Source: a virus (taxonomy: Duplodnaviria > Caudoviricetes). From it: 64,000 nucleotides of DNA. Both the position numbers and the translations under genes were made by a program. Of this stretch, positions 19,763-51,982 are shown piece after piece. A model generated the notes under the pieces. It worked only from the letters and a program-made list of their open reading frames with translations. It made no database searches and was not told the origin of the DNA. Numbering within the stretch: the first letter of the stretch is position 1; each line of letters opens with the position of its first letter. The stretch lies in IMG/VR virus record IMGVR_UViG_3300003155_000119, positions 49,779-113,778 of that record; one strand, given 5' to 3'.

Positions 19763-20263
19763 TTATTCCCAGTTGTATTCAGAATTTTCTTTTAATACTT
19801 GACTATATGCAATTAAAATAGCATCTGCTTCATCATCATTAACGTCTTTCCCAAATTTATCTTTTACAAATTTAATGTCTGCGGCTTTCAGTTCTGCACG
19901 TTTTATACCGCGTCCCGTATGTATCCCGACGGCAGCCCGCCACGAATTAGGCATTATATATTCTATTTCAATACTAGGAAAATTATCATGTACCATTATT
20001 GCTATTGCTCCTTGTAACCACATAAGAGCTTTATGTGTTTTAATGTTTCCTTTAGTATTTTCTGGCAATACTTCTTCTAAAATAATTTTATCTATATCAG
20101 GATTCTATCTAATTGCTTCCTCTATTGAATCAACCATCTTATGAATTCTTTTAATTAAATCAGAAGAGGTCGCGCCACAAAATCCAGAGTACACTAGCTT
20201 CTATCCATCAAAGACTGCAATTCCGCTCATCTTGGAGCTTCCATCAATTCCCATTATTTTCAT
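19763..20263 (-). CDS. ruvC: RuvC-like Holliday junction resolvase (2 TAG)
   Basis: N-terminal MKIMGIDGSSKMSGIAVFDG recovered only through TAGs at 20201-20203 and 20105-20107; ILEE, LQGAI, NDDEADAILI motifs. Confidence 0.85.
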
Positions 20264-20369
20264 ACTATCACCCCCTGTATATAGTGTAGCACAAAAAATA
20301 TTATAAAACAAGAGCAAAAAGAAAAAGAGCTGAAACAAATCAGCTCTTTCATATCTTTCATTTATTCAA

Positions 20370-20801
20370 TCACTTAACTCCAGTAGAACCAAATCCGCCT
20401 TCTCCGCGTTCAGTATCTTCCAAAGAATCTACTAGTTGAAAATCTGCGGTTACATAAGGCATTATAATAAGTTGACAAATTCTTTCTCCACGCTGAATCG
20501 TTTGCGGCAAGTCCGTGTCGTTGTGCATTGGGACTAGTATCTCTCCACGATAATCTGAGTCCACCACGCCGATGCAATTCGCCAACCGCAGGCCGCGTTT
20601 AGAGGCAATACCAGAGCGAGGGAAAAGTCCGCCAAAACATCCGCCAGGAAGTTCCATTGCAAGGCCGGTATGAATCATTGTAGTGCAGTGGGGTGCAATC
20701 AGAATATCATCAGACTCGGCCGCATAAATATCATAACCTGCGGCACATGAGCTTCCGCGAAGAGGCATTTGCGCATAATCATTTGTAAATTTAACTTTCA
20801 T
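20370..20801 (-). CDS. dut: dUTPase
   Basis: AGYDI, PRSG, GVVDSDYRGEI, ERICQLI, RGEGGFGSTG motifs. Confidence 0.95.
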   Translation of the reverse strand: MKVKFTNDYAQMPLRGSSCAAGYDIYAAESDDILIAPHCTTMIHTGLAMELPGGCFGGLFPRSGIASKRGLRLANCIGVVDSDYRGEILVPMHNDTDLPQTIQRGERICQLIIMPYVTADFQLVDSLEDTERGEGGFGSTGVK

Positions 20802-20807
20802 CTATTG

Positions 20808-21056
20808 TTATTTCACCTCATAATTGATATCGACTTCATTCAGAGGCTCTTTAAGTTCGTTGAAGGCTTTATTTAAGCTAACTTTAAAGTAGGTATCGAC
20901 GATTTCACCTTTCAGTTTTATATCTTTCTTCTCTGTTGTATACTTCAGCAAATCAAATTTATCGTCTGTTTTTGCGTCTTGAATCAACTGCTCTGCCTCT
21001 GCTTCACTGTCTACTCGATAAATTTCAGTTGTACTAATCAAAAATTTCATAATCAA
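20808..21056 (-). CDS. Hypothetical protein
   Basis: Intact ORF tightly packed in operon. Confidence 0.65.
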   Translation of the reverse strand: MIMKFLISTTEIYRVDSEAEAEQLIQDAKTDDKFDLLKYTTEKKDIKLKGEIVDTYFKVSLNKAFNELKEPLNEVDINYEVK

Positions 21057-21325
21057 AATACCTCAATTTCTAAATTATTTTTATTATACGTTGCCATTTC
21101 TTTTTCTTTAATCTTTTGAACAATTTTTTCTGTAAATTTCTTTGGGCCTACAATAGTTATTTTGCTAAAATCTTCATAATGGCCGTCTGTAGTAATGATA
21201 CCAAAAATATCGTTTGGTATATTAGAAACTGTGCTATTTACAGAAGCAAATTTATGACCATTTTCGTATCCCTCGACTTTCTGTGTCATAGCAAAAGGTT
21301 GAATCATTACAATAATCTTCTTCAT
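21053..21325 (-). CDS. Hypothetical protein
   Basis: Intact ORF, overlaps neighbours by 1-4 nt. Confidence 0.65.
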   Translation of the reverse strand: MKKIIVMIQPFAMTQKVEGYENGHKFASVNSTVSNIPNDIFGIITTDGHYEDFSKITIVGPKKFTEKIVQKIKEKEMATYNKNNLEIEVF

Positions 21326-21783
21326 TATATCTCAATTACTCCTTCGTTGTAAGGAAATAGATAATAACATAGCATACCTTTTTCTGCGTCCTTCAACCAA
21401 ATTTCTATAGCATAATTATCTTCTGTATTTTCTATACTATAGACTTTTCCTCTGTTCTTTAAACAAATCCTTAATTCATCACAAGCTATAAGAATTGGTT
21501 CGTGAAAGTCTAAATAATTGCGAACATTGAACAAGGTATAGTTATTATCTTCTTTACACAATAGCATAAAGTAACAATTATCAAAATCTTCTTTATTTAT
21601 TCTCTATTCAATATTTTTTTTGAAGAAAGGGGCCACAATGTAATCTAAAGCATCATATAGATTTTCATCTGTCATAGGATTTTCTGTCTATTCTATTATC
21701 TATTTATTTAAATCATATAGAGTTGCTCCGCTTATTTTTGTTTTTTCACTTTTCTAAAACTCTTTAATTTTATTATTTGTCAT
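21325..21783 (-). CDS. Hypothetical protein (4 TAG)
   Basis: AAGGAG RBS and ATG at 21783 in frame with track ORF 21325-21567 through four TAGs. Confidence 0.7.
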
Positions 21784-21833: not shown

Positions 21834-22478
21834 TTAACAAATATTTTCTTTCTCTTTATAAAGAGCAAGTCTTTCTTTTATTTTCCCTAGCGTTATTTCT
21901 TCAATCTTTTGCTTTAATATATTATCTATTTTGTCAAAATATTCTATAGCTATTGGATTTCTGCTAATAGTTTGAAGTCCAAAGTATTCTTCTGCTGTTT
22001 TTCTACACCATATGGCCTCTTGTAGAGTTTCAAAATGTGGAAAATAAAATCTTTTTTTATTAAAATAAAAATCTACTGTATAGCTATGCCAGTTAGGATG
22101 GTATGTTATTCCTCTTATTTGAGTTTTACTTTCCTTTCTAACATTTACATTCTAAATATTTTTCAATCTAGTGACAATTCTTAAATTTGATTTTCTATTA
22201 TCAAAAGAATTGCTGCTTATGTGGTCAATCTCACACCCATCTGGAACTTCTTTGTTTAAAATATATTTATGTAAATAAATTTGTTTTTGTCCATTTTTGC
22301 TTTGTCCAGTAACAGCGTATACTTTATTCTTTTTATGGCTAGTTCTCCAGTGATATTTTTGAACTCTTTCGATATCATCTGTATCAATTATAAAATCATA
22401 CCAGATATCTTTATACTAAATTTTTAGTATGCAATACTCTTCTTGTTGAATATATTGATTTGAATCTTTTTTATACAT
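21834..22478 (-). CDS. Free-standing HNH endonuclease with AP2-like C-terminal domain (2 TAG)
   Basis: IYLHKYIL...EIDHISSNSFDNRKSNLRIVT HNH motif, then RGI..H...F.TLQEAIWCRKTAE; absent from ORF track. Confidence 0.85.
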
Positions 22479-22956
22479 TATTTGTTAAAACTCCTCGCTT
22501 AGTTATTCTTTGATTAGTAGACCCTCTAAGTTTTAAAGTTATATCTCGCTTTTCTTCAAGGTATGGACCGTCAATTAAAATATCTATCAAAGGAAGAATT
22601 GTTTTTTGTTCCTCATTAAAATTTTCTAATACATACCCAGTCCATAAATATATCTTTATATCAGGATAAGTATTTCTTACTTTTTTAACGATATAAATAG
22701 TATTATTTAAATTTTGTGCGGCTAAAGGCTCGCCACCTAGAATAGAAAAACTCCTTGCTATTCCGTTTTCTCTTAATGCGGTGATAATCTTACTAACTAA
22801 TTCATCTCTGTCGATTTCTTGACCACCATTAAAATCCCAAGTTTCTTGATTGTGGCACCCTTTGCAGTGAATAGGGCATCCTTGGCACCAATAAGAAACA
22901 CATATCCCATTTTCACAATCTACTATATCATTGTATTTTAAAGCTGCATATCTCAT
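22471..22956 (-). CDS. nrdG: Anaerobic ribonucleotide reductase activating enzyme
   Basis: Radical SAM CPIHCKGC, LGGEP, DILIDGPY, LRGSTNQR; start reassigned to MRYAAL. Confidence 0.92.
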   Translation of the reverse strand: MRYAALKYNDIVDCENGICVSYWCQGCPIHCKGCHNQETWDFNGGQEIDRDELVSKIITALRENGIARSFSILGGEPLAAQNLNNTIYIVKKVRNTYPDIKIYLWTGYVLENFNEEQKTILPLIDILIDGPYLEEKRDITLKLRGSTNQRITKRGVLTNNV

Positions 22957-22969
22957 TTTTTTATTTCTC

Positions 22970-25126
22970 TCACCAATCAATATGAAGAACTCGTTCTTTA
23001 ATTTCTTCTGTGCGACCTTGATTCCAGAAATTAGTTCCGATGTATCCACAAGTCCGTCTAGCAACACTCATCTTATCTCGGTCCCGATTTCCACAGTTTG
23101 GACACTCCCAATACAGATGACCAGGTTCTCCTTTGATTTTAATCTCGCCGGAATAGCCACAACATTGACAATAATCAAATTTGCTATTTATTTCCGCATA
23201 CATAATATTATCATAAATGAACTTAAGAATTTCCAGCACTGCGGGAATATTATTACTCATATCTGGAACTTCTACATAGCTAATTGCGCCTCCCGGAGAA
23301 AGTTTTTGAAATTCAGATTCTAACTTCAATTTAGTAAAAGCATCAATTTTTTCTCTTACATTCACATGATAAGAGTTGGTGATATAATCGTGGTCGGTTA
23401 TTCCCGAAATAACCCCAAACCGCTCTTTTAAACATTTTGCAAATTTATAAGTAACACTCTCGATAGGAGTACCATAGACGCTATAATCAATATCCTCTTC
23501 TTTTTTCCATCTGGCGCACGCATCATTTAAGGTTTGCATTACGGATAAAGCAAATTTTTTACCTTCTTCTGTGGTATGAGAGACACCGAGCATCGCCATT
23601 GTACATTCATAAAGCGCAGCATATCCTAGGCTGATAGTGGAATATCCATGATAAAGTAGTTCATCTATTGTATCATCTTTATTTAGTCTTGCTATTGCCC
23701 CGTTCTGCCATAAAATAGGAGCTACCTTAGATGATACGCCTACCAGTCTATTATGCTTACATTTTAATGCCTTATGACATAATTCAAGGCGCGAGTCAAG
23801 AATAGTCCAAAATTTATTCATATCTCCTTTTGAACTTAATGCCACGTCAGCTAAGTTAATGGTAACGACACCTTGATTGAATCTTCCGTAGTATTTATGT
23901 TCACCCTCTTTATAGTTTAATGCATGAGCATAATTCTTAGTGGTGCGGTCTGTAGTTAAGAAAGAACGGCATCCCATGCAGGTGTAAATATCTCCGCCTT
24001 TCAACTCTCTTTCGACTTTATTAGAAATATAATCAGGAACCATTCTTTTAGCTGTGCATTCTGCGGCTATTTTCGTTAAGTAATAATACTTACTGTTTGG
24101 ATAAATATTAATTTCATCAAGAGCATAAATAAGTTTTGGAAAAGCTGGAGTGATATATACTCCTTTTTCGTTTTTCACTCCTTTAATGCGTTGGCGAAGA
24201 ACCTCCTCGATAACAAGAGCTAAATCCTCTCTAGCCGGACCGTCGGGAACTTCATTAAGATTCATATATACAGTAATAAATGGCGCCTGTCCATTTGTCG
24301 TCATCAAAGTAATAATTTGATATTGAAGAGTTTGTACGCCAGCACTAATATCATTTTTTACCATCTGCTCTATCATCGCATCTGCCGCAGTCGGATAATC
24401 TTTTTTAAACTTTTGACGAGAGCTCTCAACAAACGGACTCAAATGAGCTAGACTAATAGATTGACCTCCGTATTGGCTAGATGCGACTTGGGCAATAATT
24501 TGAGTGGCAATATTGCACGCAGTAGAAAACTTATGCGGCTTGTCTATTTTTGTTTTACTAATTATAGTTCCATTTTGCAACATATCTTCAAGATTAATTA
24601 AGCAACAATTATAAATAGGTTGCAATATATAATCTAAATCATGAACATGAATAAGACCTGTATCATGAGCTTCTACAACGTCTTGCGGCAAGATTCTACG
24701 TCTTGCAATGTCAGTAGACACTGCGCCTGCTACATAATCTCTTTGAGTTGTAACTAATTGAGCATCCTTATTAGAATTTTCTGTCATCCAATATTCATTA
24801 GAATTATTTACTATTTCATCAATAGTTTTATCGATGGTGTTCTGCCTAGCATTATCTCTTTGTTTTCTATAAAGAATATATGCTTTAGCAACGTCTTTTC
24901 TCTTTAGACTCATTAAGCCGCGCTCTACATAATCTTGTATTTCTTCTACGCTCAATTCGTCTTTAGAGGTAGAAATAGAAGCAATATAATCTGCAATATT
25001 TTGAGCCTTTATGCTTGCATAATCAGTAATTTCGCCATCAACGACCAGAAAAGCTTTTAATATAGCATTTATAATCTTCTCCTTGTTAAATTGGACTATA
25101 CGTCCATCTCTTTTTAATACATTCAT
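22970..25126 (-). CDS. nrdD: Anaerobic (class III) ribonucleoside-triphosphate reductase
   Basis: ATP cone VLKRDG, NCCL, MGCRSFL, glycyl-radical RRTCGYIG. Confidence 0.97.
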   Translation of the reverse strand: MNVLKRDGRIVQFNKEKIINAILKAFLVVDGEITDYASIKAQNIADYIASISTSKDELSVEEIQDYVERGLMSLKRKDVAKAYILYRKQRDNARQNTIDKTIDEIVNNSNEYWMTENSNKDAQLVTTQRDYVAGAVSTDIARRRILPQDVVEAHDTGLIHVHDLDYILQPIYNCCLINLEDMLQNGTIISKTKIDKPHKFSTACNIATQIIAQVASSQYGGQSISLAHLSPFVESSRQKFKKDYPTAADAMIEQMVKNDISAGVQTLQYQIITLMTTNGQAPFITVYMNLNEVPDGPAREDLALVIEEVLRQRIKGVKNEKGVYITPAFPKLIYALDEINIYPNSKYYYLTKIAAECTAKRMVPDYISNKVERELKGGDIYTCMGCRSFLTTDRTTKNYAHALNYKEGEHKYYGRFNQGVVTINLADVALSSKGDMNKFWTILDSRLELCHKALKCKHNRLVGVSSKVAPILWQNGAIARLNKDDTIDELLYHGYSTISLGYAALYECTMAMLGVSHTTEEGKKFALSVMQTLNDACARWKKEEDIDYSVYGTPIESVTYKFAKCLKERFGVISGITDHDYITNSYHVNVREKIDAFTKLKLESEFQKLSPGGAISYVEVPDMSNNIPAVLEILKFIYDNIMYAEINSKFDYCQCCGYSGEIKIKGEPGHLYWECPNCGNRDRDKMSVARRTCGYIGTNFWNQGRTEEIKERVLHIDW

Positions 25127-25182
25127 TGTTTTTATCCTCCTAATTAGATAATTATTTTAAGGTTGATAACTTATACATAATA

Positions 25183-25211
25183 ATTATACCATATATAATT
25201 GTTAAAGTCAA
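25183..25211 (-). promoter_or_regulatory. sigmaA-type promoter for nrdD
   Basis: TTGACT-17-TATAAT with extended TG. Confidence 0.7.
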
Positions 25212-25249
25212 TAGGCTTAACAATATATATGGTTTTTGTAGAATTTATA

Positions 25250-26137
25250 TTAACTATTTTTGACCAATTTTATCAAAACTCTTTTATATACATTCTTACC
25301 ATTGCAAATGAATTGACCGTCTGAAATGCCAGCTCCGCCATCACCGGTTAAATCATGGTCATGACCTATTAATTGGAACTGCTCTGGACAATATTTACTT
25401 AAGAAAGTAACAGGGACTCCCATTAGTCCGTCATAATCGCAAGGAATATTAACTACTTTAGATACTTCAATAGCATCATAGTTATCATATTTAGGATATT
25501 TCTCCTCATTACCATAATATTTTTCTTTTAGCGGGATGCGGCAATGCCTTTTTTCATTATCTAAATTTGTATACCAAATGATATTACCAAATTTCTTTTC
25601 TGTGCGGTCTGGCGTTAAAAACACTTTAGGGCTAGTATTTCCGAACCATACTTGGTTATTTTTAAAGAGCGGGAATATTTCTTTATAGGTTGCAGCATTC
25701 ATATTACCTATAACAAGAAACTTCTTATTATATTTTATAAGTTGCGCGATATATTCGCGGAAGAGGCTAAATGGCGGATTAGTGATAACGAAGTCCGCAC
25801 TTTTAAGTAATTCAACGCATTCTTCTGAACGAAAATCCCCATTGCCGCACAGTTGAGTCCTTACTTCTTTGCTATTGTTATCAAACTCTGTTTTATATGC
25901 CGTTTTATTTAATGACAAATTTGTTGCAATGATTTTTTTTATTCCTAGCTCATAAAAATTCTCTTTAAAATATTTATAAAAATTTGAATACTCTACATCA
26001 TCACAATTACAATAAATAATTTTATCTTTAAAATATTCTTTATAATTAGTTAATTCTTTTTCTATATCTTCTAATCTTGTATAAAATTCATCATTTTTAA
26101 TGCGCTTGGCCGCAGTTAGATTTTTATTATCACTCAT
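25250..26137 (-). CDS. Orphan adenine DNA methyltransferase, EcoRI-methylase family
   Basis: KNDEFYT, IYCNCDD, GDFRSEEC, ITNPPFSLFREY, YPKYDNYDAIEV. Confidence 0.9.
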   Translation of the reverse strand: MSDNKNLTAAKRIKNDEFYTRLEDIEKELTNYKEYFKDKIIYCNCDDVEYSNFYKYFKENFYELGIKKIIATNLSLNKTAYKTEFDNNSKEVRTQLCGNGDFRSEECVELLKSADFVITNPPFSLFREYIAQLIKYNKKFLVIGNMNAATYKEIFPLFKNNQVWFGNTSPKVFLTPDRTEKKFGNIIWYTNLDNEKRHCRIPLKEKYYGNEEKYPKYDNYDAIEVSKVVNIPCDYDGLMGVPVTFLSKYCPEQFQLIGHDHDLTGDGGAGISDGQFICNGKNVYKRVLIKLVKNS

Positions 26138-26720
26138 TATTTATTCTCTCCTTTGTCCAGTTAACAAAAGATTCATAGAAGTTAAGTCCTTGTAAAGGCA
26201 ATTCATAAATCTTATTTGGATGTTTTTCTATATATTCCTTTTTTGCGCAATTAAATTCTACGTCATTAAAATCTTGCTTGTCCGCTAAAAAGCGTCTACA
26301 AATTTCATCACAATTAGGATTTTTTTCTCTTCTTAATGAGCGCATTAATCTATCTTTATCACTAGCTGAAACCTCAATAGCCATTAAATCAAAATGTTCA
26401 TCATTGTCTTCAAATAGTTTTTTCATCCAATAGAGATTAAATATTCCTACATTAATCTTATCATTCTTAATAGACTCTCTTGCTATTGCATAAATCCAAT
26501 TATTATAATCAATAGGCCAAAGGAAATTATCATCCCTTAAAATATCTTTCTTTTTCTTAAATAGGTAATCAATACCGTCAATTTCCTTTTCGCGCGGCGG
26601 TCTGGAAGTAGTTAAAAGAATTTTGTTTAAATCAAAGTTATTTGATAGGTGATTCAGAAAAGTATCTTTCCCTGCCGCGCTCATTCCATAAATAGCTAAA
26701 ATTTTAGGCTTTACGCCCAT
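26130..26720 (-). CDS. gmk: Guanylate kinase-like nucleotide kinase
   Basis: GMSAAGKDT P-loop and TTSRPPREKEIDGIDY. Confidence 0.8.
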   Translation of the reverse strand: MGVKPKILAIYGMSAAGKDTFLNHLSNNFDLNKILLTTSRPPREKEIDGIDYLFKKKKDILRDDNFLWPIDYNNWIYAIARESIKNDKINVGIFNLYWMKKLFEDNDEHFDLMAIEVSASDKDRLMRSLRREKNPNCDEICRRFLADKQDFNDVEFNCAKKEYIEKHPNKIYELPLQGLNFYESFVNWTKERINNE

Positions 26721-26726
26721 ATGGCA

Positions 26727-29700
26727 TCATCCTCTCTCATGCTCAATAATAATATCTTGACCATTGTTAATTACATCTTTGATCCTATAAAGTTGATGAG
26801 TTGAAGTATGCGAATAAGACTTAGCTCTAAAAGTGTCATCAATTCGATACCCAGTTACCATGATTTTCGTTCCTCTTGTAAACCAACTCTTATCAATAAC
26901 TTTCTTAGTTCCATCTAATTGAACTTCACTTAATTGACGATTATAATTCGCATAATATTCTTTAGTGAATTTAACATCTACGACACCTGTAGTAGTTAAA
27001 ATCGAAACCGTTGAACGAACATCATTCTTGCCAAGAACTGTTCCAATAATTCTTGTCGTTTCATAGATAGGAATTTCTTTTCCTTTCCTCTTGAAGAATT
27101 TTTCTGCTTTAGGAACGGTAGGAAGTTTATTAAAATCACTTATTCCATATTTAGAAGTATTAACTTTTGCCAATTCATGTTCGTGATAGTAAAAACACAT
27201 ACTTTCCATTTCCCATGCGGAAACAGTTCCTGCTGCGTACTTATCCCAACATTCTTTAAATAATAAATCATTTAATTCATTTAATACTCTCTTTTGATTT
27301 TCTTTTAACCATTCTCTAATATTATTCATCATTTTTGAATAAATATTATCCCATTTGCTTTGCGGCAAAAGATTTTCTCCGTTAATGATAGTTAAGTCAT
27401 CTTGAGAGAAGTGCTCCTCGTAGAATAGAAAATCGTCCTCTTTTAACAGATAATATTCCTTGCCTTCCTTTTGATTCTTCAATTTTTTATTAAGCAAGAA
27501 TACTTGCCTTTCAAGAGACAAAGAATCTGGAATGAGATTTTTCTGAATCAATATGCTCAGATTTTGTAGAGTAAGTTTTTTCTTTGGCTCACAAATCTTT
27601 GAGATATAATAAGCCATGATTGCGCGGCGAGGGGCAGATGGATTAACTGATTTTGCCCAGACTTCATCAGTTTCATCAAAAGCTCCTGACTTAATAAGAG
27701 AAATCATTACCGTTTTATTAAGAGGACATTTAACTAAGAAATCATTTAGACTCTTATATTGTCTGTTCTTAATAATATTCCCAATAACATCTCCGCCTAC
27801 TTTATTAAGAGCATTCATCGCATACAAAATTCTATTATTTGCCGCGTCTGGTTTAAAACTATAATCTGATTCATTGATATTTACAAGAGAAACAGAAATA
27901 CCGTTTGAAATGATTTTACCTAGCGCCTTGGCGATTTTAGCATAGTCTGTTTGCCCTTCTGACTCCTCCAATGACTCACTATCAACAATAAGACAAGCCG
28001 TATTCCAGTATATAGGATTCCAATGGGTTGCGAGGTATGCTGTTTGGAACCCGATAAAAGAATACGACATCGCGTGTATGTCGGAGAATGAATATCCCAG
28101 CTGAGTGGATGCGATATTGTCCCAAACATAATTAGCCATCGCAAGAGAGGACGCCTTTTCGAATACTTCAGATTTCAACTCTGCGATTTTATCCATGCGT
28201 TTCTTGCTTACGACTTTTCGTGCTGAGTTGGCTTGGGCTAGGCTAAACCCGCAAATATCGGAATCCATCAAAGTCCGCATTAGCTGTTCTTGTGAAATGC
28301 CAATACCATAACTTTTACCAACATATTTATTCAGTGCTTTTTCCTCTTGTTCGGTCAGACCATATTTTTTCATTTCTTTATGGACTAGTTCAGAATTCTT
28401 CTTAAATCGCACATACTTTTCCATTGGTGGCTCACCACCATCCTCCGCCATAAGGCGAATCAGTCCATTGGTATTACTTAATTCCTGCATATTCTTAGGA
28501 CGCACTTTTTTTGCGCCTTGACGACCAATAGTAGAATCCAACTGAAACAGATTAAGACTAGAAGCATTTTGAATTGTGTTCCAAGTATCTTTATCATCAA
28601 GCGGCAAAACGTCAGGATGAAGATATTTGTTATACAACTCGCGGAGACTCAATCCTTGTTCAAGAATTCCGTCCTTCTGCATCATAAGAAGCGTCTGAAC
28701 GAACATGTCTTGCACAGAGGTGACCAAGGCGTCCAATTTGGTCAGACCACAAGCTTCGTCCATATGCAAATCATACTGCGTTACAATTTCGCCGCTAGTC
28801 GCGCGCATAAAGCAGCAATGTTCATATGGATCATTCTCAAACATTACGACACCAGACGCGTGTATGCCGCGAGATTTAGTTAACCCCTCCACGCCCATAA
28901 TAATATCCAACAATCCTGGGTACTGGTCTACTTCATTAATAAAAGCGGAAATTGGTTTTCGTCCTTTCTCGTCATTTCCGTACACCACATCTCGTATCGA
29001 CCAGACAAAGCCTCGTTCTGATGGAATAAGACTAGATAAATATTGCGCAATATCAACGTCAATTCCCTCTGGGAACTCGTCACTTCTATAGCCGCGACAG
29101 GCCGTGAGTACCGCAGACTTAGATGATTCTGTGCCGAAAGTTGCAATCATAGTACATCCAAGATTTTGTTTCTCTTGTTCACTAAGACTGGCATTCAAAT
29201 ATTTCTGACGTTCGTCTTTAATATTTTTGATAATTAGAGGTCTCTTTGAAGGTGCTAAATCCAGGTCAATATCACCAAGTCCATCCGTATCACGATTCAT
29301 ATAGCGGAAGAACGGGAATTCGTATTGGATAGGGTCGAGCTGCGATATACCTAACAAATAATGATTCAATGCGGCACAAGCACTACCTCGACCTACACCA
29401 ACCGTCGAACCGCATTCCCAAAACATATCAATGTAATGCTGCAAAAGAAGCGGGTATCTAAACATATTAGTATTTAATTTATCACCAACGATTTTCTTAA
29501 CCTCAGCCTCTTCTTCAAGTTCATCTAAATACTCTTTTTTATTAAGTAAATCTTTTTCCGCAAGTTTGTTCCAACATTGATTAATCCAATTCCGTTCAAC
29601 TTTATCATCAGAATTGAACATTCTATCTAACTCTTTATATCCAGTTTCTTTCTTTTGTTTTGGATAATCAGAAATTTCTACTTCAGGAATTTGTTGAGAA

Positions 29701-36969: not shown

Positions 36970-36971
36970 TA

Positions 36972-39599: not shown

Positions 39600-39606
39600 A
39601 TAATAT

Positions 39607-40152: not shown

Positions 40153-40167
40153 AACCTCCCTTTATAT

Positions 40168-40196
40168 ATTATACCATAATAAAAGAAAAAAGTCAA
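40168..40196 (-). promoter_or_regulatory. sigmaA-type promoter overlapping upstream terminator
   Basis: TTGACT-17-TATAAT with extended TG; -35 is the 3' arm of hairpin 40191-40224. Confidence 0.8.
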
Positions 40197-40234
40197 ACAG
40201 ATAATTCTCTTAATCTGCTTGACTATTGTTTTAA

Positions 40235-41458: not shown

Positions 41459-41475
41459 ATATTAGCCCCTCCTTA

Positions 41476-42426: not shown

Positions 42427-42514
42427 ATATTCCTATTTTCTCCTTTATAAAAACATTCTATTCTTTATCATTATCATTACTGTAATTATATTATAACATA
42501 ATTTTTCTTAATAA

Positions 42515-43189
42515 TCATTTTTCTCTTGGCGGCTTGCGACAACTCTTTTTATTCTCAGGACAATAGCCAAATATCTCACATTTTGGAACGAAATATTCAT
42601 CAACAATAGTAGCCCATTCTGTAGAATAATTAGCTAAGGCCGCCTTTATATCCTCCATCAGTTCCCTGTATTCCCAGTACGCCCTGGCGCACATTCTTTG
42701 ATGACTCATATCAATAAGATTGCGCAGATTAGTTCTTACTACTACTTTTGTCGTCATATTAAGCGGTAAGATACCAGACGCGTCTTCATTTTTAATACCT
42801 AGCTTTTGCAATCTATCATACGCATCCAAAATATCTTGCATGACTGCGTCATATGTTCTACAAGCTTCCTCATTATTAACAATAGAATAAGGTGTGATGT
42901 AATCAAAATTTTTATAATTAATGTACCTCGTTGAACTCTGCAAACGAGTCGGCATCCCGCCTATATGAGTGTAAAATTCTCTAATAACTTTCGCGGAATA
43001 ACCATCTAAAATCATATAAACTTGCGGAATTTCAAGAACGCGGCCGTGATTATTTTGTAGACACTCAATCCCACGATTATAGTTTTTAGCATCTGAACTA
43101 ATATTAGACCCATAACAAATTCCGGCATAGTAGCCCATTTGAGTAATAGGATTAGTCATTGTATCTACTTGAATTCGTACTTGCCCCAT
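42515..43189 (-). CDS. thyX: Flavin-dependent thymidylate synthase
   Basis: HGRVLE, QSSTRY, EDASGILP, TNLRNL, RMCARAYWEYR. Confidence 0.9.
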   Translation of the reverse strand: MGQVRIQVDTMTNPITQMGYYAGICYGSNISSDAKNYNRGIECLQNNHGRVLEIPQVYMILDGYSAKVIREFYTHIGGMPTRLQSSTRYINYKNFDYITPYSIVNNEEACRTYDAVMQDILDAYDRLQKLGIKNEDASGILPLNMTTKVVVRTNLRNLIDMSHQRMCARAYWEYRELMEDIKAALANYSTEWATIVDEYFVPKCEIFGYCPENKKSCRKPPREK

Positions 43190-44137
43190 TTAGCTTCCTC
43201 CTTGTGTCATGTTGTAACCAAATTTATCTGTTTGATAAAGTAATATATAAAATTTTTCTCTTTCGTTTAATTGCTCTTTAGAACACTGTTCTATCAATTC
43301 AAAAGCAAAATTCCAAACACCATATTTTTGCATTGAGTTATAGAGTATATTGGTATGCGAAGCATCTATTCCTAGACCGCATTTTATATGTTGCTTTATT
43401 CGGTCTTGAATATTAACACTTTGGCCTATATAAGACTGTTTTGTTGACAGATTGGTTATCTTATAAATGCCGCAGACAATAGCAGAGCCATAGATTCTAT
43501 TACATAGTTCTGTTGTATTCCTTTGAAAGTATTCGCTCCATATCAATTTACTTATTGCTCGCTCATTCCTAAAAGAAGGTCTTAACTCCAATAATCTCTT
43601 TACATCAGCTAAATCTTGTTCAGAAATAGTTAATTTATAAAACTCTTCTTTTTCTTCTATTTCTCTTTCTCTTAACTGTGCGGCCTTAGCTGCGGCGAGT
43701 TTTTGACTAATATCTTTGATATTTGATTCTAGTCCAGACTGTTTTTGAGCTAGAGCCGCGCATTCATTTTCAAGTTGTTCTTTCTTTTGTTCATACTCTT
43801 TATCTAAATTATTATAGTTTGCTGTTGCTAAATTTATTGAATCAGTTAATTGTCCTAATTCTTCTTCTTTCTTTTCTAACTGCTCCAGTATCTCGTTATA
43901 ACTATTTTCGTTCTTCTCTATTAATTCTATATATGTCTCAGAATTCTTTTTTAACTTTTCGTTTATTTGTTCTATTGATTTTTTTCTAATATTTGCTTTA
44001 TCTATTTCTTCTTGAACAGAATTATACGATTTTTTTATATTAGAAAAAGTGATTGATTGTGACCATAGATATAGTAAATAGATTGAAACAAAAACACAAT
44101 AAGTAAAAATAAATCCAAATATTATTGCCTAGCGCAT
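43190..44137 (-). CDS. Membrane-anchored coiled-coil protein with C-terminal GIY-YIG nuclease; TAG at codon 3
   Basis: AAGGTGGT RBS, ATG CGC TAG, then hydrophobic helix AIIFGFIFTYCVFVSIYLLYLW, long coiled coil, GIYKITN..SYIGQS; in frame with track ORF 43190-43591. Confidence 0.8.
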
Positions 44138-44506: not shown

Positions 44507-44508
44507 AA

Positions 44509-44718: not shown

Positions 44719-46620
44719 TTATAAATCAAATTTTTTCTTAAAGTCTTTTTCAGATAAAATAGGAATATTTGCTTTCTTCGCGGCCAGATTTTTTGCTGAA
44801 GTAGAATTTATATCATTATTAATGAGGTAGCTAGTCTTTTTATTGATGGTCTCAACTACCCTGCCGCCATTCTCCTCAATGATGGATTTGAGTTCCGCTC
44901 TGTTCTTATACTCAGTCAATTTCCCAGTGATAACAAAAGTCAAACCATCTAAATGCGCCGAAAGTAGATTTTTTTCTGGTTTGGCCGCACTAAAAGTAAT
45001 CAACTCTGCAATTTTATCTGCCTCTTGATAATCAAAATTCATTATCTCATATGCTTTACTTAAACCAAAATTTGGGATTTGAGTGAAATCATAATTGTTA
45101 TTAATTGCGTCTCTAAAGCTCTCATAGCTACTAAAATACTTTGCAATGTCTTTAGCTACGTTCTGACCAATAAGCGGGATACCAATAGCAGAAATGAATT
45201 TATTTAACTCACAACTTTCTTTGCTTTTGTCTATTGCGGCAAGAATTTTATCTACTGACCGCGGTCCAAAGCCTTCCTTCTTTATCCATTCGTCTCTATG
45301 CTGTTCAAGGTTAAATATATCAATCGCAGAACTAATCCAGCCATAATTAATTAGCTTCTCTAAGGTAGCTCGTGAAAGTCCTTTAATATCTAGTCCCTTC
45401 TTGCCTGCAAAATGGTCCAGCCGCACAACAAGATTAGACTCGCATTCTGAGTTATTGCAATATAATACGATTGACCCATTCTCATTTTTTTGAGTTAGCT
45501 TCGCTCCGCAATAAGGACAAATTTCAGGAATTTCAAAGTATTCAACTCGAACAGTTGGTTCGCTTTTGTCTGCGGAGTAAATTTGAGGGATAATCATATT
45601 AGACCTATACACTTCGATAAGCTGGCCTTGGTATGGCTTATCACCAAGTAGTTCATTCATAATACTAATATTATGTAGATTAGCTCTTGATACTACTGCG
45701 CCCTCAATTTCAATCGGTTCAAAAACGGCAACTGGAGTTAACGTACCAAGTCTACCCATAGTCCACTCGATATCGAATAGTCTACTTGAATAAATTTCAT
45801 CGTAAAACTTAAAAGCTAATGCTCCACGAGGATGATGTGCAGTATTACCAAGAGAAGCTGAATATTCTTCATCATCGTATCTGACTACTACACCATCAAT
45901 AGGAATAGAATAATATGCAGCCCAAGACTTAATTATCTCAATACCGTCCTCTAAAGATTTCGTTTTATCAGGGATAATTGCGGTTTCATAAAATCCATTA
46001 AGGAACAGATGATGCAAATTTGCATTAAAGGAACTAGTCTTAAAATCACTTTTAATAAGCGCCCAAGCCCAGAATTCTAGTCCTCTTTTCTCGCATTCCT
46101 TCGAATCCAGAAGCCGGATACTACCTGCGGTAAAGTTGCGTGCATTACTATACTGGTCTGCAAAGTTATTCTCAAATACATTTTGGCGACAAAGGATTTC
46201 GCCATCAATAATTACTTCTTCACTCTTGTCGTTAATTATCTTAGGAATAGAAGAAATAACCATTGCATTGTGAGTAATATCTTCGCCAACTTGGCCATTG
46301 CCGCGAGTCTCAGCGCGTACCAATTTGCCTTTCTTATACAATAGAGAGCATGATAAACCATCATATTTAGGCATGATTACATACTCGCGGTCACCAATAA
46401 ATGACTTTAATACCTCAATATCTTTCGTTTTATCAAGACTAAGCATTGGATGATTGTGTTCAACTTTTTTAAGTTCAGATACTACTTGATAATTAATCCC
46501 TTGACTATCTACTTGTCTCTTGATACTAAAATATAAGTTATCCCACTCTTTATCCGACATAATTGGATGACCTTCATCATATGCTTTAGTCGCTTTATTT
46601 AAGAGGTCAATTTTATCCAT
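44719..46620 (-). CDS. ligA: NAD-dependent DNA ligase
   Basis: MLSLDK, KYDG, TRGNGQVGEDIT, DGVV, CPYC zinc finger, BRCT FVITG; start reassigned to MDKID. Confidence 0.95.
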   Translation of the reverse strand: MDKIDLLNKATKAYDEGHPIMSDKEWDNLYFSIKRQVDSQGINYQVVSELKKVEHNHPMLSLDKTKDIEVLKSFIGDREYVIMPKYDGLSCSLLYKKGKLVRAETRGNGQVGEDITHNAMVISSIPKIINDKSEEVIIDGEILCRQNVFENNFADQYSNARNFTAGSIRLLDSKECEKRGLEFWAWALIKSDFKTSSFNANLHHLFLNGFYETAIIPDKTKSLEDGIEIIKSWAAYYSIPIDGVVVRYDDEEYSASLGNTAHHPRGALAFKFYDEIYSSRLFDIEWTMGRLGTLTPVAVFEPIEIEGAVVSRANLHNISIMNELLGDKPYQGQLIEVYRSNMIIPQIYSADKSEPTVRVEYFEIPEICPYCGAKLTQKNENGSIVLYCNNSECESNLVVRLDHFAGKKGLDIKGLSRATLEKLINYGWISSAIDIFNLEQHRDEWIKKEGFGPRSVDKILAAIDKSKESCELNKFISAIGIPLIGQNVAKDIAKYFSSYESFRDAINNNYDFTQIPNFGLSKAYEIMNFDYQEADKIAELITFSAAKPEKNLLSAHLDGLTFVITGKLTEYKNRAELKSIIEENGGRVVETINKKTSYLINNDINSTSAKNLAAKKANIPILSEKDFKKKFDL

Positions 46621-46654
46621 GTAATTATTTACCTTTCTTTCTTTTCTTATATAT

Positions 46655-46683
46655 ATTATATCATAATAATAAAAAATTGTCAA
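46655..46683 (-). promoter_or_regulatory. sigmaA-type promoter for ligA overlapping gyrA terminator
   Basis: TTGACA-17-TATAAT; perfect inverted repeat TGTCAAGGTA/TACCTTGACA 46678-46703. Confidence 0.8.
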
Positions 46684-46709
46684 GGTAGGAATTTACCTTG
46701 ACAGATATG

Positions 46710-49034
46710 TTATATTTTCATAACGGATTTAATTTTATCGTCTTTCGTTACAATAACTCCAGTTGTCATTCTGCCTGTCACTGGTATATCATTTGCGGCA
46801 ATACTCACTGTATTATTTTGACCAATAATTAAAATATTATCGTCTTTCGTTAAGATAAGAGCAGAAACTAATTTCCCCTTTTCTTCTGACGGCTTATATA
46901 CAAAGACTCCTTTGCCATTGCGGCCCTGGATATAAAATTCGTCGACACGCGTTAATTTACCATACCCATTCTCAGTAAAAGTGCCAATACATTCGTTCTT
47001 CGGATCTCTAATTGCGCTTGCCGCAATGACATAATCTTGCTCTTGCAGTTTCATACCTTTGACACCGATTGCGTTTCTTCCTATTGGCGCAATATCTTTA
47101 GTTTCTACCTTGACCGCAAGACCGCACTTCGAGATTAGCATTACGTCCTCGTCATTCATAAATTCTACATTAACTATAGAATCCCCTTCTTGCAATTTAA
47201 TTGCGGTAATACCAGTCTTTCTTTTTACGTTTTTATATTCATCAATAAGACTTTTCTTAATATACCCTTTTTTAGTAAAGAAAACAATATATTTAGAGAA
47301 CGAGAAAGAAGATACTGCAATCAAAGAATCATCAGAGTCTAGTCCAACTAGATTTCCTACACTAGTATTCTCATTCGCGGGAATATCATTTACTAGCAAT
47401 TTATACATCTTACCTTTTTTGGTAAAAATAAACAAATAATTCTGCGTATTTACCTTCAAAGAAGTTAGAATAGACTCCTCTTTAGTTTTAGACCCTTTCC
47501 CGCCTCTTCTTTGTACTTTAATTGATTTTTGAGGGACTCGTTTAACATAGCCCTCGTTATTAAAGATAACAATTACATCTTCTGATGGAATTTCTTCTTT
47601 AACTTTCTCTTCCTCTTTTTCTTCTAACTGAATAATTTCTGTTCTTCTCTTGTCTCCATACCTTTTTACGATACTAGAAAGACGTTCTCTAATAATTTGG
47701 TGCTGTCTGTCTTGGGACGAAAGAATATTTTCATACTCTAAAAGTTTGTTAGTCAACTCAGCCTTTTCATTTTGTAATTCAATCTTTTCCAAACCAGCTA
47801 AACTACCTAATTTCATGTTGACAATCGCTTGGGCTTGGTTCGTAGAGAAAGAATATTTCTCAATTAATTTATTACAAGCATCTTTTGAGGATTCAGCTTT
47901 CTTTATCAGATTAATAATATTATCAATATCTTCAAGCGCTTTTAAAAGACCATTAATTATTTCAAGCCTACTAAGCGATTTCTCTTTATCAAAGTTAATT
48001 TCCTTAATTAAGCAATCTATATTATGAGATAGATATATTTTAATACAGTCTTTTAATCCTAATTCAGTTGGGACTTTATTGACAAGAGCAACTTGGTTAT
48101 AGTTAATAGACTTCTGCATATTCGTCTTTGCAAAAATCTTTTTAACTACAGTTTCAATATTTGAACCTTTGCGACACTCAACAACGATTCTAACTCCTTT
48201 TTTATTACTCTCATCATGAACGTCAATAATATCTTCTATCTCTTGTTCACCTAAAGCTCCAATTTCTTTAATCAACTCTTCAAGAGTAGTTTCATAAGGA
48301 ATTTCATAATAGATAATTTTATTCTTTTCTATTCTGTACTTAGCTCTTACTTTAACCGCGCCTTTGCCGCAAGCAATAATTTTTGGTAACTCACTCCCAT
48401 TGATAATAAGTCCACCTGTGGGGAAATCAGGACCAGGAAGAGTTGGTTCTTTACCTTCCATATAATCATAAATAGCATTAGCTACTTCAGGCAAGTTATG
48501 CGTTAAAAAATGGCAGCTAATTGCGACACCAATTCCCAGATTTGGATTGCACAATAGATTAGGAAAGATTGCGGGAAGAGTGACTGGCTCTTCATCGTTC
48601 TCGTCATAGTTTGGAACAAAATGAACATTTCTCTTTTTAATATTAGCTAGCAAGCCATCCTCTGCAATCTTAGCTAACCTAGCATTGGTATAGCGGTACG
48701 CGGCAGGGCCGTCTCCGCTAATATTGCCCATGTTACCATGAAAGTCAATTAGAGGATAACGCATTACCCATGGTTGAGAGAGATTAACTAATGCACCGTA
48801 TATGGACGAGTCACCGTGAGGATGGAAACGGGCCATGGTCGATCCGACGATATTGGCACACTTCACATGTTCATGATTAGATGTATACCCCTCATCATAT
48901 GCGTCCCAAAGAATACGACGGGCAACTGGTTTTAATCCAGACTTAGCATCTGGAATTGCTCTGTCCGTATTTACTGCAACAGAGTACTCAATAAAATTTT
49001 GTTGTAATTCATTATTCAAATCATTAAATTCCAT
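46710..49034 (-). CDS. gyrA: Type IIA topoisomerase subunit A (gyrase A-like)
   Basis: GLKPVARRIL, HPHGDSS, AAYRYT, PGPDFPTGG, GyrA-box-like QRRGGKG, beta-pinwheel repeats. Confidence 0.93.
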   Translation of the reverse strand: MEFNDLNNELQQNFIEYSVAVNTDRAIPDAKSGLKPVARRILWDAYDEGYTSNHEHVKCANIVGSTMARFHPHGDSSIYGALVNLSQPWVMRYPLIDFHGNMGNISGDGPAAYRYTNARLAKIAEDGLLANIKKRNVHFVPNYDENDEEPVTLPAIFPNLLCNPNLGIGVAISCHFLTHNLPEVANAIYDYMEGKEPTLPGPDFPTGGLIINGSELPKIIACGKGAVKVRAKYRIEKNKIIYYEIPYETTLEELIKEIGALGEQEIEDIIDVHDESNKKGVRIVVECRKGSNIETVVKKIFAKTNMQKSINYNQVALVNKVPTELGLKDCIKIYLSHNIDCLIKEINFDKEKSLSRLEIINGLLKALEDIDNIINLIKKAESSKDACNKLIEKYSFSTNQAQAIVNMKLGSLAGLEKIELQNEKAELTNKLLEYENILSSQDRQHQIIRERLSSIVKRYGDKRRTEIIQLEEKEEEKVKEEIPSEDVIVIFNNEGYVKRVPQKSIKVQRRGGKGSKTKEESILTSLKVNTQNYLFIFTKKGKMYKLLVNDIPANENTSVGNLVGLDSDDSLIAVSSFSFSKYIVFFTKKGYIKKSLIDEYKNVKRKTGITAIKLQEGDSIVNVEFMNDEDVMLISKCGLAVKVETKDIAPIGRNAIGVKGMKLQEQDYVIAASAIRDPKNECIGTFTENGYGKLTRVDEFYIQGRNGKGVFVYKPSEEKGKLVSALILTKDDNILIIGQNNTVSIAANDIPVTGRMTTGVIVTKDDKIKSVMKI

Positions 49035-51194
49035 ATTGTACAGCCTCCTGAGAATGATTTTTAATGAATTCTTTACGCGGTTCAACAGCGTTCCCCATTA
49101 AGTCATCAAATAATTGATTAGCTTTTTCTACATCGGCTACCGTTACTTGCTTAATGATACGCATTTCAGGATTTACAAGGATTTCAGTCTCGTCTTCGGA
49201 CATTTCGCCTACGCGATATTCCGCTATTTCTAGCGGCGCTGACTATTTCTTCCGAGTAACTCGGTCTACCGTTTCCCAGAACGTACCAATAGTTCCAGTA
49301 CTTCCCTACAAAGGGAATAGTCGATACAGGATTTAATTCCCACGAGATCATCATGCTAATTACTTAGTTTAGACTACCTCGTTAGCTTAGATAATATATA
49401 TAAACCCCTATGGTCAATAGGAAAAGTAGATAAGGGCCAGACTACCTCTTACCCTTTTAAATGCTTAACACTATACTTTTTAGACTTAGCTTCTTCTTTA
49501 TACTTAACTAAAGCCGCATCGTCTTTAAGATAAATATATTTATCTTTGCCTTCCGTTACTTTATACAGAGGCGGAACTCCGGCATAAACATATCCATCAA
49601 TGATAAGCTGAGGTGCAAACGTCCACAAAAAGGTGTAAAATAGATTCTTGATATGGGACCCGTCGCTGTCCGCGTCACTTTCGATTATAATTTTACCATA
49701 ACGCAATTCATCTTCATCATAAGTCAATTTCATTGTCTTAGGGTCAACTTTAAGGCCAAAAGCCTCAATCATTGTCATTATTTCTGCGTTCTTTTGAATT
49801 TTATCTAAAGAACTTTTTCTCACATTGAGCAGTTTTCCTCTCACGGGAAGAACAGCAATGAACTCATTATCTCGCGCGGATTTCAAATTGCCTGCGGCGG
49901 AGTTCCCTTCCACTACATAAATTTCACACTTTTTGCGGTCAGGACTGAAACAATCCGCAAGTTTGCTATCAAATTTAAGAGCTTTAGTTTTCTTTTTAGT
50001 ACCTTCTCTTACGGCTTCTCGTGCTTTCTTTGCTGCCTCTCTAGCTTTTCGCGCATTAAGCGCCTTCTCAATTATTATCTTAATATCTTTCTCTTGATGA
50101 ATAAAAATATTTTTAAGCGCTTTAGTTGTTAACTTCTGAACATAAGTGCGTCCTTCTGAAGAACTTAACTCTTCTTTATTCTGACCTTTAAATACGGGGT
50201 CAATCATTTTAAAATTAAGAATAAGAATTTGACCTTCCTCAAAATCAGAACCTGTTAAATTATTATCCTTATCTTTCAACATTTTTTTGTCTCTTGCAAA
50301 ATCATTAAGAGCACTAGTCCATGCCATCTTAAAGCCTGTAAGATGAGTTCCTTTCTCTTGAGGAATGTTATTAGTATATAATTTTACAATAGAAGAATAG
50401 CTATTATTGTAGCCAAGAGCGACTTCTATTTGATAACTATTTTCTGATTCAGTAAAATAAATAGAATTACAAATAAAATCTTTATCTTTATTTAAATAAT
50501 TTAAATAATCATACAGACCTTTCTCAGAATAATAAGTTCTTACAATGTTATTTTTTTCATCTGTGAAATTAAAAGTAAGTCCACGACAAAGATAAGAAAA
50601 TTCCTGAATCATATTTTGCAGTTCCTGACTGTCTGCTTCGACTGTTTCAAAAATATCTGAATCAGGATAAAATAAAACAGAAACGCCACTTTTATTTTTA
50701 TCTATTGCTTCTGTACTATATGAAACAAATTTTCCTTTACTAAACTCAACGATTTCTTTCTCCCCATCTCGTTCGGTAGTTACTATCATCTTAGTCGACA
50801 AAGCATTTACAGCTTTGCCTCCTGTTCCATGCTCCCCTCCAGATGTATTATATCCAGACTCTCCCGTTGCATTATTGAATTTTCCTCCTGTATTAGCAAT
50901 GCCAAAACAGGCTTGCAAGATAGAACATCCACTTTTATGCTTTCCATGCGGGATTCCTCTACCATTGTCTTTTATATAAATACCACCATCTCGTTGCAGA
51001 ACTATCTCAATTTGAGTCCCCGCTCCATTTAAATATTCATCAATGCTATTAGAAATAATTTCTTTAATACAATGATGTAATCCTTTAATATCTTTCGAAC
51101 CAATATACATACCTGGGTATCTTCGTATATGTTCAAAATAATCAAGCGACTCAATACTATCTTTTGTATAAAGTTTTTCCATTTGATATTTCAC
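49024..51194 (-). CDS. gyrB: Type IIA topoisomerase subunit B; two exons 51194-49451 and 49211-49024
   Basis: HIRRYPGMYIG, DNGRGIP, VEGNSA, PVRGK, DADSDG; splicing restores HLKG-LGEM...LMGNAVEPRKEFI. Confidence 0.93.
49212..49450 (-). mobile_element. ORF-less group I intron (239 nt) in gyrB
   Basis: Exon ends U (GGG T), intron ends G; P1 AAGGGU/GCCCUU, P3 UCUAC/GUAGA, P7 GACUAUU/AAUAGUC; splicing makes TTA Leu of KGLGEM. Confidence 0.9.
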
Positions 51195-51982
51195 TCTCCT
51201 CTTTGTTCTTCCTCAAAATATCTCCACTTAAATCCACCACAAAAATTTCTTCTTCCCTTACAGACTTTAATAATAGCACTCGAATCACAATTATTCATCC
51301 GACTAGCTAAAGCCGCAGTATCATAAATATCTATTATTTCATTAGTATTTGGGTCTATTTTTACAACTTTCTTACTCTTGGACTGAATTTGCGTTGTATT
51401 TTTATCTCCTTTATACTAATATCCAGTATAATTAGGTATAGCCAGTTCATTATTATCATTTAGCCAACAAAAATATCTATTAGAAGTTGTTTTCTATTCT
51501 CCTCGACAACAAGCTGCTATCTTTCTTTCATCGCATCCTGTCTATTCTGCACAATCAACAATACTTCTGTATATATTAATAATATTAAAATTCTTATCAA
51601 TTTCTGCAACACATTTTGCTTTATTTCTTTTTGTCTCTCTAATTTTTTGATAAGTATTAGCGTCATTTATAGGATGCTCTGTATTAATGGTTTGATTGTA
51701 ACCATTTGGAGATAACGAATTCATTTTTATGATATAACGCTATTCTATTTCACGAATTTCCTGCTCAGAGCACTCTTTTTCTTCCAAAATTTCAAATTTA
51801 AAATTATTTATTCCATATTTTCTTATTGCCGAATATAAAGGATAATTATATTTTGGATTATTTTTATGAGTTGCATTATATATATGCTAATTAAATCTTC
51901 TTTTTGGTTCGTTTATTGTAGAGCCAATATATTTTTTATTATTTATTAAATTAGTAAAACAATAAATATAATTTTTCGCCAT
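51191..51982 (-). CDS. Free-standing GIY-YIG endonuclease with two NUMOD1-like repeats (5 TAG)
   Basis: YIYCFTNLINNKKYIGST, PNGYN, IAACCRGE, IIKVCKGRR..GGFKWRY; TGA overlaps gyrB GTG. Confidence 0.85.

Follow-up and report, generated by a model that had tools for sequence, protein, structure and literature searches.

We found that in-frame TAG separated the free-standing nuclease genes from almost all other genes in the replication block of a phage genome in which this codon is read as sense. The sequence analysed (referred to here as the window, 64,000 nt) comprises the terminal 64 kb of one viral contig (113,778 bp) in IMG/VR, IMGVR_UViG_3300003155_000119, and the replication block occupies positions 19763-51982 of the window on the minus strand. 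All six free-standing nuclease genes of the block (6/6) were TAG-bearing, with 12 TAG codons in total. In contrast, the 21 non-nuclease genes (8,345 codons, including 266 CAA or CAG) contained 4 TAG codons, all of them in one hypothetical gene at 21325-21783, and the other 20 genes had none. The difference was significant both for the number of genes with TAG (6/6 nuclease versus 1/21 other genes, Fisher p=2.4e-5) and for the use of TAG versus CAA in nuclease versus other genes (odds ratio 10, p=3e-5); at the rate of the late genes (0.37), ~99 TAG codons were expected in the non-nuclease genes, compared with the 4 observed. Together with the comparisons described below, the sequence data firmly indicate that strong and lasting purifying selection acts against TAG in the replication core, that this selection spares a conserved set of nucleases, and that synthesis of these nucleases at full length depends on a suppressor.

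The contig has a guanine plus cytosine (GC) content of 0.35. When TAG was read as sense, fragmented frames became tightly packed genes. Coding density increased from ~0.7-0.8 to ~0.9 once TAG was translated as Gln (Q). The virion arm is located on the plus strand (1-19729), where TAG accounted for ~37% of Gln-type codons, and the minus-strand arm (19763-59426) is made up of genes for early functions, lysis and replication. Its replication module belongs to the SPbeta type: DnaE shares 38% identity with YorL, and RecJ 31-32% with YorK. Judged by these sequence features, the phage is an SPbeta-like gut phage with TAG reassigned to Gln (code 15). Its host is probably a Firmicute living in the gut of chickens or other animals. 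Gene families were called with Pfam and PHROG, and in-frame TAG codons were counted for each gene and their positions verified. DnaE relatives were drawn from IMG/VR, and five contigs of 133-156 kb were taken whole (G001-G005); together with this phage (G000) they made up six whole genomes, with DnaE identity of 52-72%. Orthologs were identified using gene calls with TAG as Q and reciprocal best matches. A further set was composed of shorter TAG-recoded loci, and five loci that look standard-code (L008, L012, L019, L020 and L025) were left out of the TAG tallies. The genes of the block are as follows.

19763..20338, minus strand: RuvC-like Holliday-junction resolvase; 2 TAG (20201-20203 and 20105-20107).
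21325..21783, minus strand: hypothetical 152-aa protein (hyp152); 4/4 Gln codons are TAG.
21834..22478, minus strand: free-standing HNH homing endonuclease; 2 TAG; GC 0.26; HNH_3 match in Pfam (E 3e-7) and HNH match in PHROG.
22471..30647, minus strand: TAG-free run of nrdG, nrdD, an EcoRI-type methyltransferase, a guanylate-kinase-like protein and DnaE.
30616..31380, minus strand: free-standing GIY-YIG endonuclease upstream of dnaE; 1 TAG at 30889-30891 (codon 164); Pfam GIY-YIG E ~1e-9.
31450..33747, minus strand: SF1 helicase, TAG-free; its LAGLIDADG intein (~366 aa) contains 19 Gln codons.
34111..35874, minus strand: RecJ-like exonuclease (SPbeta YorK type); 1 TAG at 34594-34596 (codon 427), before the OB domain.
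35875..43189, minus strand: TAG-free run of primase, DnaB with intein, a 181-aa protein (h181), AAA_24, a 316-aa protein (h316) and ThyX.
43190..44137, minus strand: protein with a transmembrane (TM) segment and a GIY-YIG domain (TM-GIY-YIG); 1 TAG at codon 3 (44129-44131), following a good Shine-Dalgarno site and ATG.
44719..49085, minus strand: LigA and GyrA, both TAG-free.
49024..51194, minus strand: gyrB, with exon 1 at 49452-51194 and exon 2 from ~49212 down; exons TAG-free.
51191..51982, minus strand: free-standing GIY-YIG+NUMOD homing endonuclease before gyrB (GIY-b); 5 TAG; GIY-YIG E ~1e-9.

A first-pass annotation of this sequence had given TAG counts for the six nucleases and for the hypothetical gene, and every count was reproduced. 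Its set of TAG-free replication genes was also borne out by codon counts: nrdD, the methyltransferase, DnaE, primase, both helicases with their inteins, ThyX, LigA, GyrA, GyrB and dUTPase all lacked TAG, as did nrdG and AAA_24, and two apparent exceptions were annotation effects. The first, at codon 6 of the longest open reading frame (ORF) for dnaE, precedes the likely ATG. The second was a pair of TAGs in a “gyrB C-terminal” ORF, which are located in a 239-nt intron-like insertion and not in gyrB coding sequence. Two labels of that annotation held only in part. The gene called HNH-AP2 had the HNH_3 match listed above and the TAG-free list was correct for the named replication genes, but no family match for either AP2 or SSB was obtained.

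The TAG codons of the block sit within or before domains supported by Pfam or PHROG that run on downstream. Since the nuclease TAGs are followed by conserved and domain-supported sequence, they are read through and do not serve as stops. In RecJ, the domains occurred in the order DHH (52.3 bits), DHHA1 (27.3 bits) and RecJ_OB (22.7 bits, below the 27-bit cut-off) in Pfam, and the protein was 31-33% identical to SPbeta YorK-type proteins. TM-GIY-YIG begins with a TM helix, followed by a long coiled coil and a conserved middle domain, and ends in the GIY-YIG domain. The RuvC-like gene was assigned by PHROG 159/827 (“Holliday junction resolvase”, E ~1e-16), with a Pfam RuvC score of 21.8 bits versus a cut-off of 22.2 bits; it is the final gene of the minus-strand arm and has its own terminator and a weak promoter before it. 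With TAG at codon 3 or before essential domains, the full-length product of such genes needs a suppressor.

The contrast was preserved in relatives. Only RecJ, TM-GIY-YIG and RuvC were conserved block families with TAG in all six whole genomes (1, 1, 5, 3, 2 and 3 TAG codons in RecJ; 1, 11, 7, 8, 11 and 6 in TM-GIY-YIG; 2, 2, 6, 5, 8 and 3 in RuvC), an outcome that, with 3 of 24 families, has a chance of 1/2024 (4/2024 when RNase H is taken as a nuclease). Primase, DnaB, LigA, GyrA, GyrB, h316 and h181 had no TAG in any of the six genomes, and DnaE had 1 TAG among 291 Gln-type codons. Similarly, in the shorter TAG-recoded loci RecJ contained TAG in 6 of 7 cases and primase in none of 5. Over the TAG-recoded relatives, including the gut phage phAss-1, TAG was found in 13 of 14 RecJ, 9 of 9 membrane GIY-YIG and 9 of 10 RuvC genes; in phAss-1 itself, RecJ had 6 and the TM-GIY homolog 8 TAG codons, and GyrA, GyrB, nrdD, primase, helicase and DnaE had none. 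TAG sites differed from genome to genome, such that the property of carrying TAG was conserved and the individual codons were not. Because the class difference was kept across relatives, it reflects lasting selection. The first-pass annotation had named relatives lacking TAG in these nucleases as evidence that would count against its proposal; TAG was lacking in only one of the 14 RecJ, one of the 10 RuvC and none of the 9 TM-GIY-YIG genes, and the comparison it had suggested, that of TAG share in nuclease and non-nuclease genes over relatives with a control for AT content, gave a persistent contrast.

Other endonucleases of the relatives were examined as well. GIY-YIG domains contained TAG in 10 of 11 cases, and those endonuclease genes that interrupt dnaE, gyrB and dnaB in relatives were TAG-bearing. 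The GIY-YIG gene at 30616-31380 had a 91% identical ortholog in G001, likewise with 1 TAG, and the HNH (21834-22478) and GIY-b (51191-51982) genes had no positional orthologs in the relatives. The TM-GIY-YIG locus was constant between ligA and thyX/h316, and it was TAG-rich in every relative (G001-G005, and phAss-1 at L067:13607-14608). In a tblastn search of this protein against cultured phages, matches besides phAss-1 were to the GIY-YIG portion only.

Base composition was considered because the first-pass annotation had allowed that local AT content might account for the TAG share. TAG-bearing genes of the window were indeed more AT-rich (mean GC 0.29 versus 0.34, p=0.016). However, TAG and CAA, the main Gln codon, have equal GC content, and in the six genomes the three conserved nucleases carried TAG in every GC stratum while the equally AT-rich primase, RNase H, guanylate kinase and h181 did not. 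At the family level, TAG share and GC were only weakly related (rho -0.26, p=0.22). Since the two codons are equal in GC, with a tenfold difference in TAG versus CAA, and the contrast was kept in every stratum, AT-richness was ruled out as the cause.

The inteins provided an internal comparison. Both helicases (SF1, 31450-33747, and DnaB, 36972-39599; minus strand) contain related, TAG-free LAGLIDADG inteins of ~360 aa inserted at the P-loop (GxGK/..., where the slash marks the junction), with similar ends (...DT(I/L)IPTP... and ...NDFIVTHN/T). Their LAGLIDADG segments had 0 TAG among 25 Gln codons versus 8 among 34 in the three free-standing homing endonucleases (p=0.016). Intein endonucleases are fused in frame and must therefore be translated along with the early helicases. 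On this sequence pattern, the deciding factor is whether a frame needs completion before the code switch, and not enzyme class or mobility. Searches of the five relatives for HNH_3 and LAGLIDADG_3 yielded too few free-standing genes for separate class tests.

Consensus sigmaA-type promoters (TTGACA-17-TGnTATAAT) were present on the minus strand at 59481, 56998, 52047, 46683, 40196, 34022 and 25211. GIY-b is the first gene after the promoter at 52047-52019 and has a 4-nt overlap with the gyrB start, RecJ abuts the primase stop codon, and TM-GIY-YIG abuts thyX; Shine-Dalgarno sites of their own precede gyrB, thyX and the further genes downstream, and the GIY-YIG gene at 30616-31380 has its own extended -10 promoter element. 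These promoters and the abutting or overlapping genes make it plausible, as the first-pass annotation had proposed, that nucleases and replication enzymes share transcripts made by the host polymerase, a statement drawn from sequence only. The perfect promoter at 46683-46655 (minus strand) is located in a hairpin and falls within the longest ligA ORF, and the true start of ligA is probably the ATG at ~46620. No distinct late-promoter motif was evident upstream of the plus-strand late operons; several plus-strand “intergenic” gaps were intron-like, and the first late operon also had a sigmaA-like promoter. As no separate late promoter type could be defined, the transcription programme was not usable for gene timing.

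We propose that the core replication enzymes are kept TAG-free, which would allow host ribosomes to make them before any suppressor is present. RecJ, the RuvC-type resolvase and the membrane GIY-YIG protein, together with the selfish free-standing homing endonucleases, are exempt and carry in-frame TAG; although they share sigmaA-type operons with the replication genes, they would await the amber-suppressor tRNA of the phage. The nucleases would thus in effect be post-switch genes (later and/or lower-yield) inside early transcripts. This scheme implies that the suppressor acts after the first round of early translation, and that restraint on DNA-cutting enzymes may be beneficial, beyond mere tolerance. 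We consider it reasonably probable, though far from assured, that synthesis of the nucleases requires the suppressor and that, although encoded in early operons, they are made later and/or at lower yield. The first-pass annotation had described recoding as a translational timer; the promoters, the gene packing and the conserved class contrast lend it partial support. It further supposes a late suppressor and selection for TAG in nucleases, and the nuclease class has exceptions. A broader role of the code switch, as a programmed checkpoint of DNA metabolism, appears unlikely: TAG-free, origin-driven replication would come first, after which RecJ, RuvC and the membrane GIY-YIG protein would be released upon suppressor build-up, leading to recombination-dependent replication, concatemer resolution and packaging, with the homing endonucleases hitch-hiking.

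Several observations weigh against suppressor-gated nucleases as a class. The edge of the block is flattering to the contrast, since the same strand just beyond it contains a TAG-free nuclease and TAG-bearing non-nucleases.

52155-52658, minus strand: RNase H; 0 TAG; outside the block.
Within 52155..54914, minus strand: lysis cassette with holin (0 TAG), M15 endolysin (peptidoglycan-binding domain present; 2 TAG) and a pair of small ORFs, each with 3 TAG (endolysin and small ORFs at 53456-54914).

TAG-free nucleases were RNase H in 5 of 6 genomes, RecJ of locus L018 (0/24) and RuvC of phAss-1 (0/8), and a free LAGLIDADG ORF of G001 (L029:16488-17348), which splits AAA_24, had 0 TAG among 12 Gln codons. 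Non-nuclease genes with TAG inside the blocks of this genome and its relatives included hyp152, h90, endolysins, a permease and several ORFs without assignment, and by pooled TAG share the small proteins hyp152 and h90 outranked RecJ. Thus, being a nuclease is neither necessary nor sufficient for TAG. Besides, the TAG share of RecJ (~0.06-0.11) was far below the late-gene value of 0.37, and the frequency of RecJ genes with at least one TAG equalled the binomial expectation (with a rate of ~0.1 and ~22 Gln codons, ~90% of genes). An excess of such RecJ genes as a sign of a selected lock was ruled out by this expectation; the mean rate already predicts presence, and presence alone is no proof of positive selection. 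The suppressor itself also contributes to these difficulties. No tRNA gene, and hence no suppressor tRNA, was found on this 113.8-kb contig, the tRNA array being outside it. A tRNA with anticodon CTA was present within a large tRNA array in 4 of 5 whole-genome relatives (G002-G005) and also in phAss-1, and on this basis the suppressor is most likely located on the missing part of the genome, which amounts to ~20-25 kb. In a relative, however, tRNA arrays were behind sigmaA-like promoters, and phAss-1 (OQ749652.1) has two tRNA-Sup-CTA genes in its replication block (L067:15006-15171), on the same strand, between the TM-GIY homolog and nrdD. These features suggest that the delay may be short, and in phAss-1 the suppressor may be co-expressed with replication genes. 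Finally, the probable capsid, scaffold and tail-tube genes, which are late, are TAG-free or nearly so (see below), and TAG avoidance is therefore no pure timing signal.

The last point leads to an alternative in which TAG works as a dimmer and not as a timer. Amber decoding would be inefficient and compete with host RF1, TAG density would mainly set yield, genes whose products are required in large amounts or with full efficiency would shun TAG, and enzymes needed at trace levels, such as nucleases and homing endonucleases, would tolerate or exploit it. The probable scaffold and major capsid genes (G000 28203-30484, L065:8203-10484) had no TAG in the six genomes, and the gene that follows them and the tail-tube exon (G000 35913-36194) had one each over the six genomes; all of these genes are late. 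The adjoining portal gene had 20 TAG codons in this genome. Highly expressed late genes thus seem, from these counts, to avoid the reassigned codon, which suggests a cost of amber decoding and a dimmer component. Early availability of the suppressor, suggested by the sigmaA-like promoters before the suppressor tRNAs of relatives and by the phAss-1 copies in the replication block, would also fit, as would the graded TAG load of nucleases (4-54% of Gln codons). On the other hand, the low-copy enzymes DnaE, primase, ligase and guanylate kinase had ~0 TAG over 6-20 genomes, which a pure yield model would not predict. The capsid assignment also limits this argument: it was based on the order of the genes and on weak tblastn similarity (22-24% identity to proteins annotated by depositors), the presumed major capsid protein, when modelled with AlphaFold on a 6-sequence alignment, gave no usable structure (pLDDT 44), and a profile search of PDB sequences with this protein gave no match. 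We regard the yield explanation, taken as a whole, as doubtful.

Alternatively, TAG in the nucleases might be a neutral by-product of CAG-to-TAG drift, without regulatory role, in genes under weak selection for expression before the switch; this would apply to endonucleases that are selfish, AT-rich and horizontally mobile, and also to accessory genes for recombination. The free turnover of TAG positions between genomes, the lower GC of TAG-bearing genes in the window and the RecJ frequencies discussed above are consistent with drift. So is hyp152, which gained its 4 TAG codons in this lineage only: these align to Q or K in orthologs, the orthologs had 0 TAG in the five relatives and in 12 further loci, and from these alignments hyp152 represents a lineage-specific move into the TAG-bearing class. 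Its sigmaA-like promoter (21840-21812) has a slightly weaker -35 hexamer (10/12 matches). Drift does not easily account for a contrast between two codons of equal GC that was seen in every GC stratum, and RecJ, TM-GIY-YIG and RuvC are conserved, full-length and syntenic core genes and not decaying cargo. Moreover, TAG at codon 3 of TM-GIY-YIG or before essential domains means suppressor-dependent translation whatever its origin. A purely neutral origin is in our opinion rather improbable. There is very little room for the remaining idea that the TAGs are artefacts, either true stops in pseudogenes or split genes, or the result of mis-set ORF starts. It is true that phAss-1 RecJ appears in GenBank as three fragments under the standard code and that the N-terminal TAGs of dnaE (codon 6) and of the gyrB exon 2 ORF really were annotation effects. 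However, the nuclease frames stayed open and conserved for hundreds of codons past each TAG, with domain matches downstream, relatives encode tRNA-CTA, and coding density rose under the reassigned code. In ortholog alignments (4,253 aligned residues), Q showed the strongest enrichment opposite TAG columns (4.6x), with E second (3.0x), and these alignments, with conserved frames and Q opposite TAG, ruled out the pseudogene or true-stop reading.

Additional features were observed around these genes. The insertion in gyrB is as follows.

49213..49451, minus strand: ORF-less group I intron-like insertion of 239 nt, which interrupts gyrB exactly at the point that corresponds to the junction of residues 583 and 584 in an ortholog without interruption (tblastn).

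In a permissive local scan, it matched Rfam Intron_gpI over its full length with 20.1 bits (E=0.005), under the gathering score, and an Rfam scan of the whole window at the gathering threshold gave no match. At the same insertion site, G002 and G003 have a GIY-YIG ORF with TAG, and in this genome a GIY-YIG gene is located just upstream of gyrB. The gyrB intron and the neighbouring free-standing endonuclease may be a case of “collaborative homing”. The lysis cassette lies on the “early” strand and separates the replication block from the early genes, and the endolysins of G004 and G005 at the equivalent site also contain TAG. A small protein at 56694-56942 (minus strand), behind a consensus sigmaA promoter and TAG-free, matched the T7 gp5.9 RecBCD-inhibitor family (Pfam E 2e-7). 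On the plus strand, GC climbs to 0.43-0.50 at the contig end, where the contig breaks within the following ORF.

59885-64000, plus strand: open-ended ORF of at least 1,371 aa with collagen-like repeats and DUF6273; 15 TAG.

If the proposed gate is real, codon reassignment would regulate more than lysis and virion genes, and individual genes would be sorted inside early operons without a change in transcription. RecJ, RuvC and the membrane GIY-YIG protein would then be enzymes that this lineage must not, or need not, make before the switch. In practical terms, standard-code annotation fragments these nuclease genes, as in the GenBank record of phAss-1, and the conserved contrast between TAG-free and TAG-bearing genes offers a cheap predictor of expression class for uncultured recoded phages.

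It has been reported that recoding in such phages affects the late and lysis genes, the replication genes remaining in the standard code (Borges et al., bioRxiv 10.1101/2021.08.26.457843; later Nat Microbiol 2022). The first-pass annotation had considered gating of nucleases inside early operons to be the less familiar part; for an intron homing endonuclease, this was already in print. In the Agate phages of that study (10.1101/2021.08.26.457843), which are TGA-recoded, a group I intron endonuclease located within an early gene shows preferential recoding, and its expression is “expected to be prevented until late”. The present case differs in that TAG is reassigned to Gln and not TGA to Trp, that the lineage is SPbeta-like, and that the pattern involves free-standing endonucleases as well as the conserved, non-selfish RecJ, RuvC and TM-GIY-YIG, with TAG status kept down to ~34% identity. 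A comparable arrangement is known in T4, in which I-TevI, I-TevII, I-TevIII, segB and mobE are controlled by hairpins that sequester ribosome-binding sites on early or middle polycistronic transcripts, the rationale being that nuclease activity is limited and introns are kept clear of ribosomes (PMC2988022). As in the phage described here, endonuclease ORFs of T4 are on early transcripts; they are translated only late, by means of RNA structure and late promoters and not codon reassignment. Another parallel is phAss-1 (~136 kb, TAG-recoded, with tRNA-Sup-CTA), of the proposed Phassvirus group of code-15 gut phages, whose “damaged” ORFs were described as “mostly virion genes and several DNA-processing enzymes” (PMC10607447), nucleases not being singled out. 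It shares with this phage the TAG in its RecJ and TM-GIY homologs and the TAG-free replication core, but its DnaE and RecJ are only ~34% identical, its RuvC is TAG-free and its suppressor tRNAs are in the replication block. Bacillus phage SPbeta likewise has the DnaE-type polymerase YorL and the RecJ-like exonuclease YorK encoded by adjacent genes, but uses the standard code and hence has no TAG contrast. A Zeta-crAss paper added nothing specific. Our analysis therefore extends a published idea and does not introduce a new mechanism; what appears to be new from these sequences is that the pattern reaches free-standing endonucleases and, above all, three conserved non-selfish nucleases, and that it has been kept across a divergent SPbeta-like code-15 lineage.

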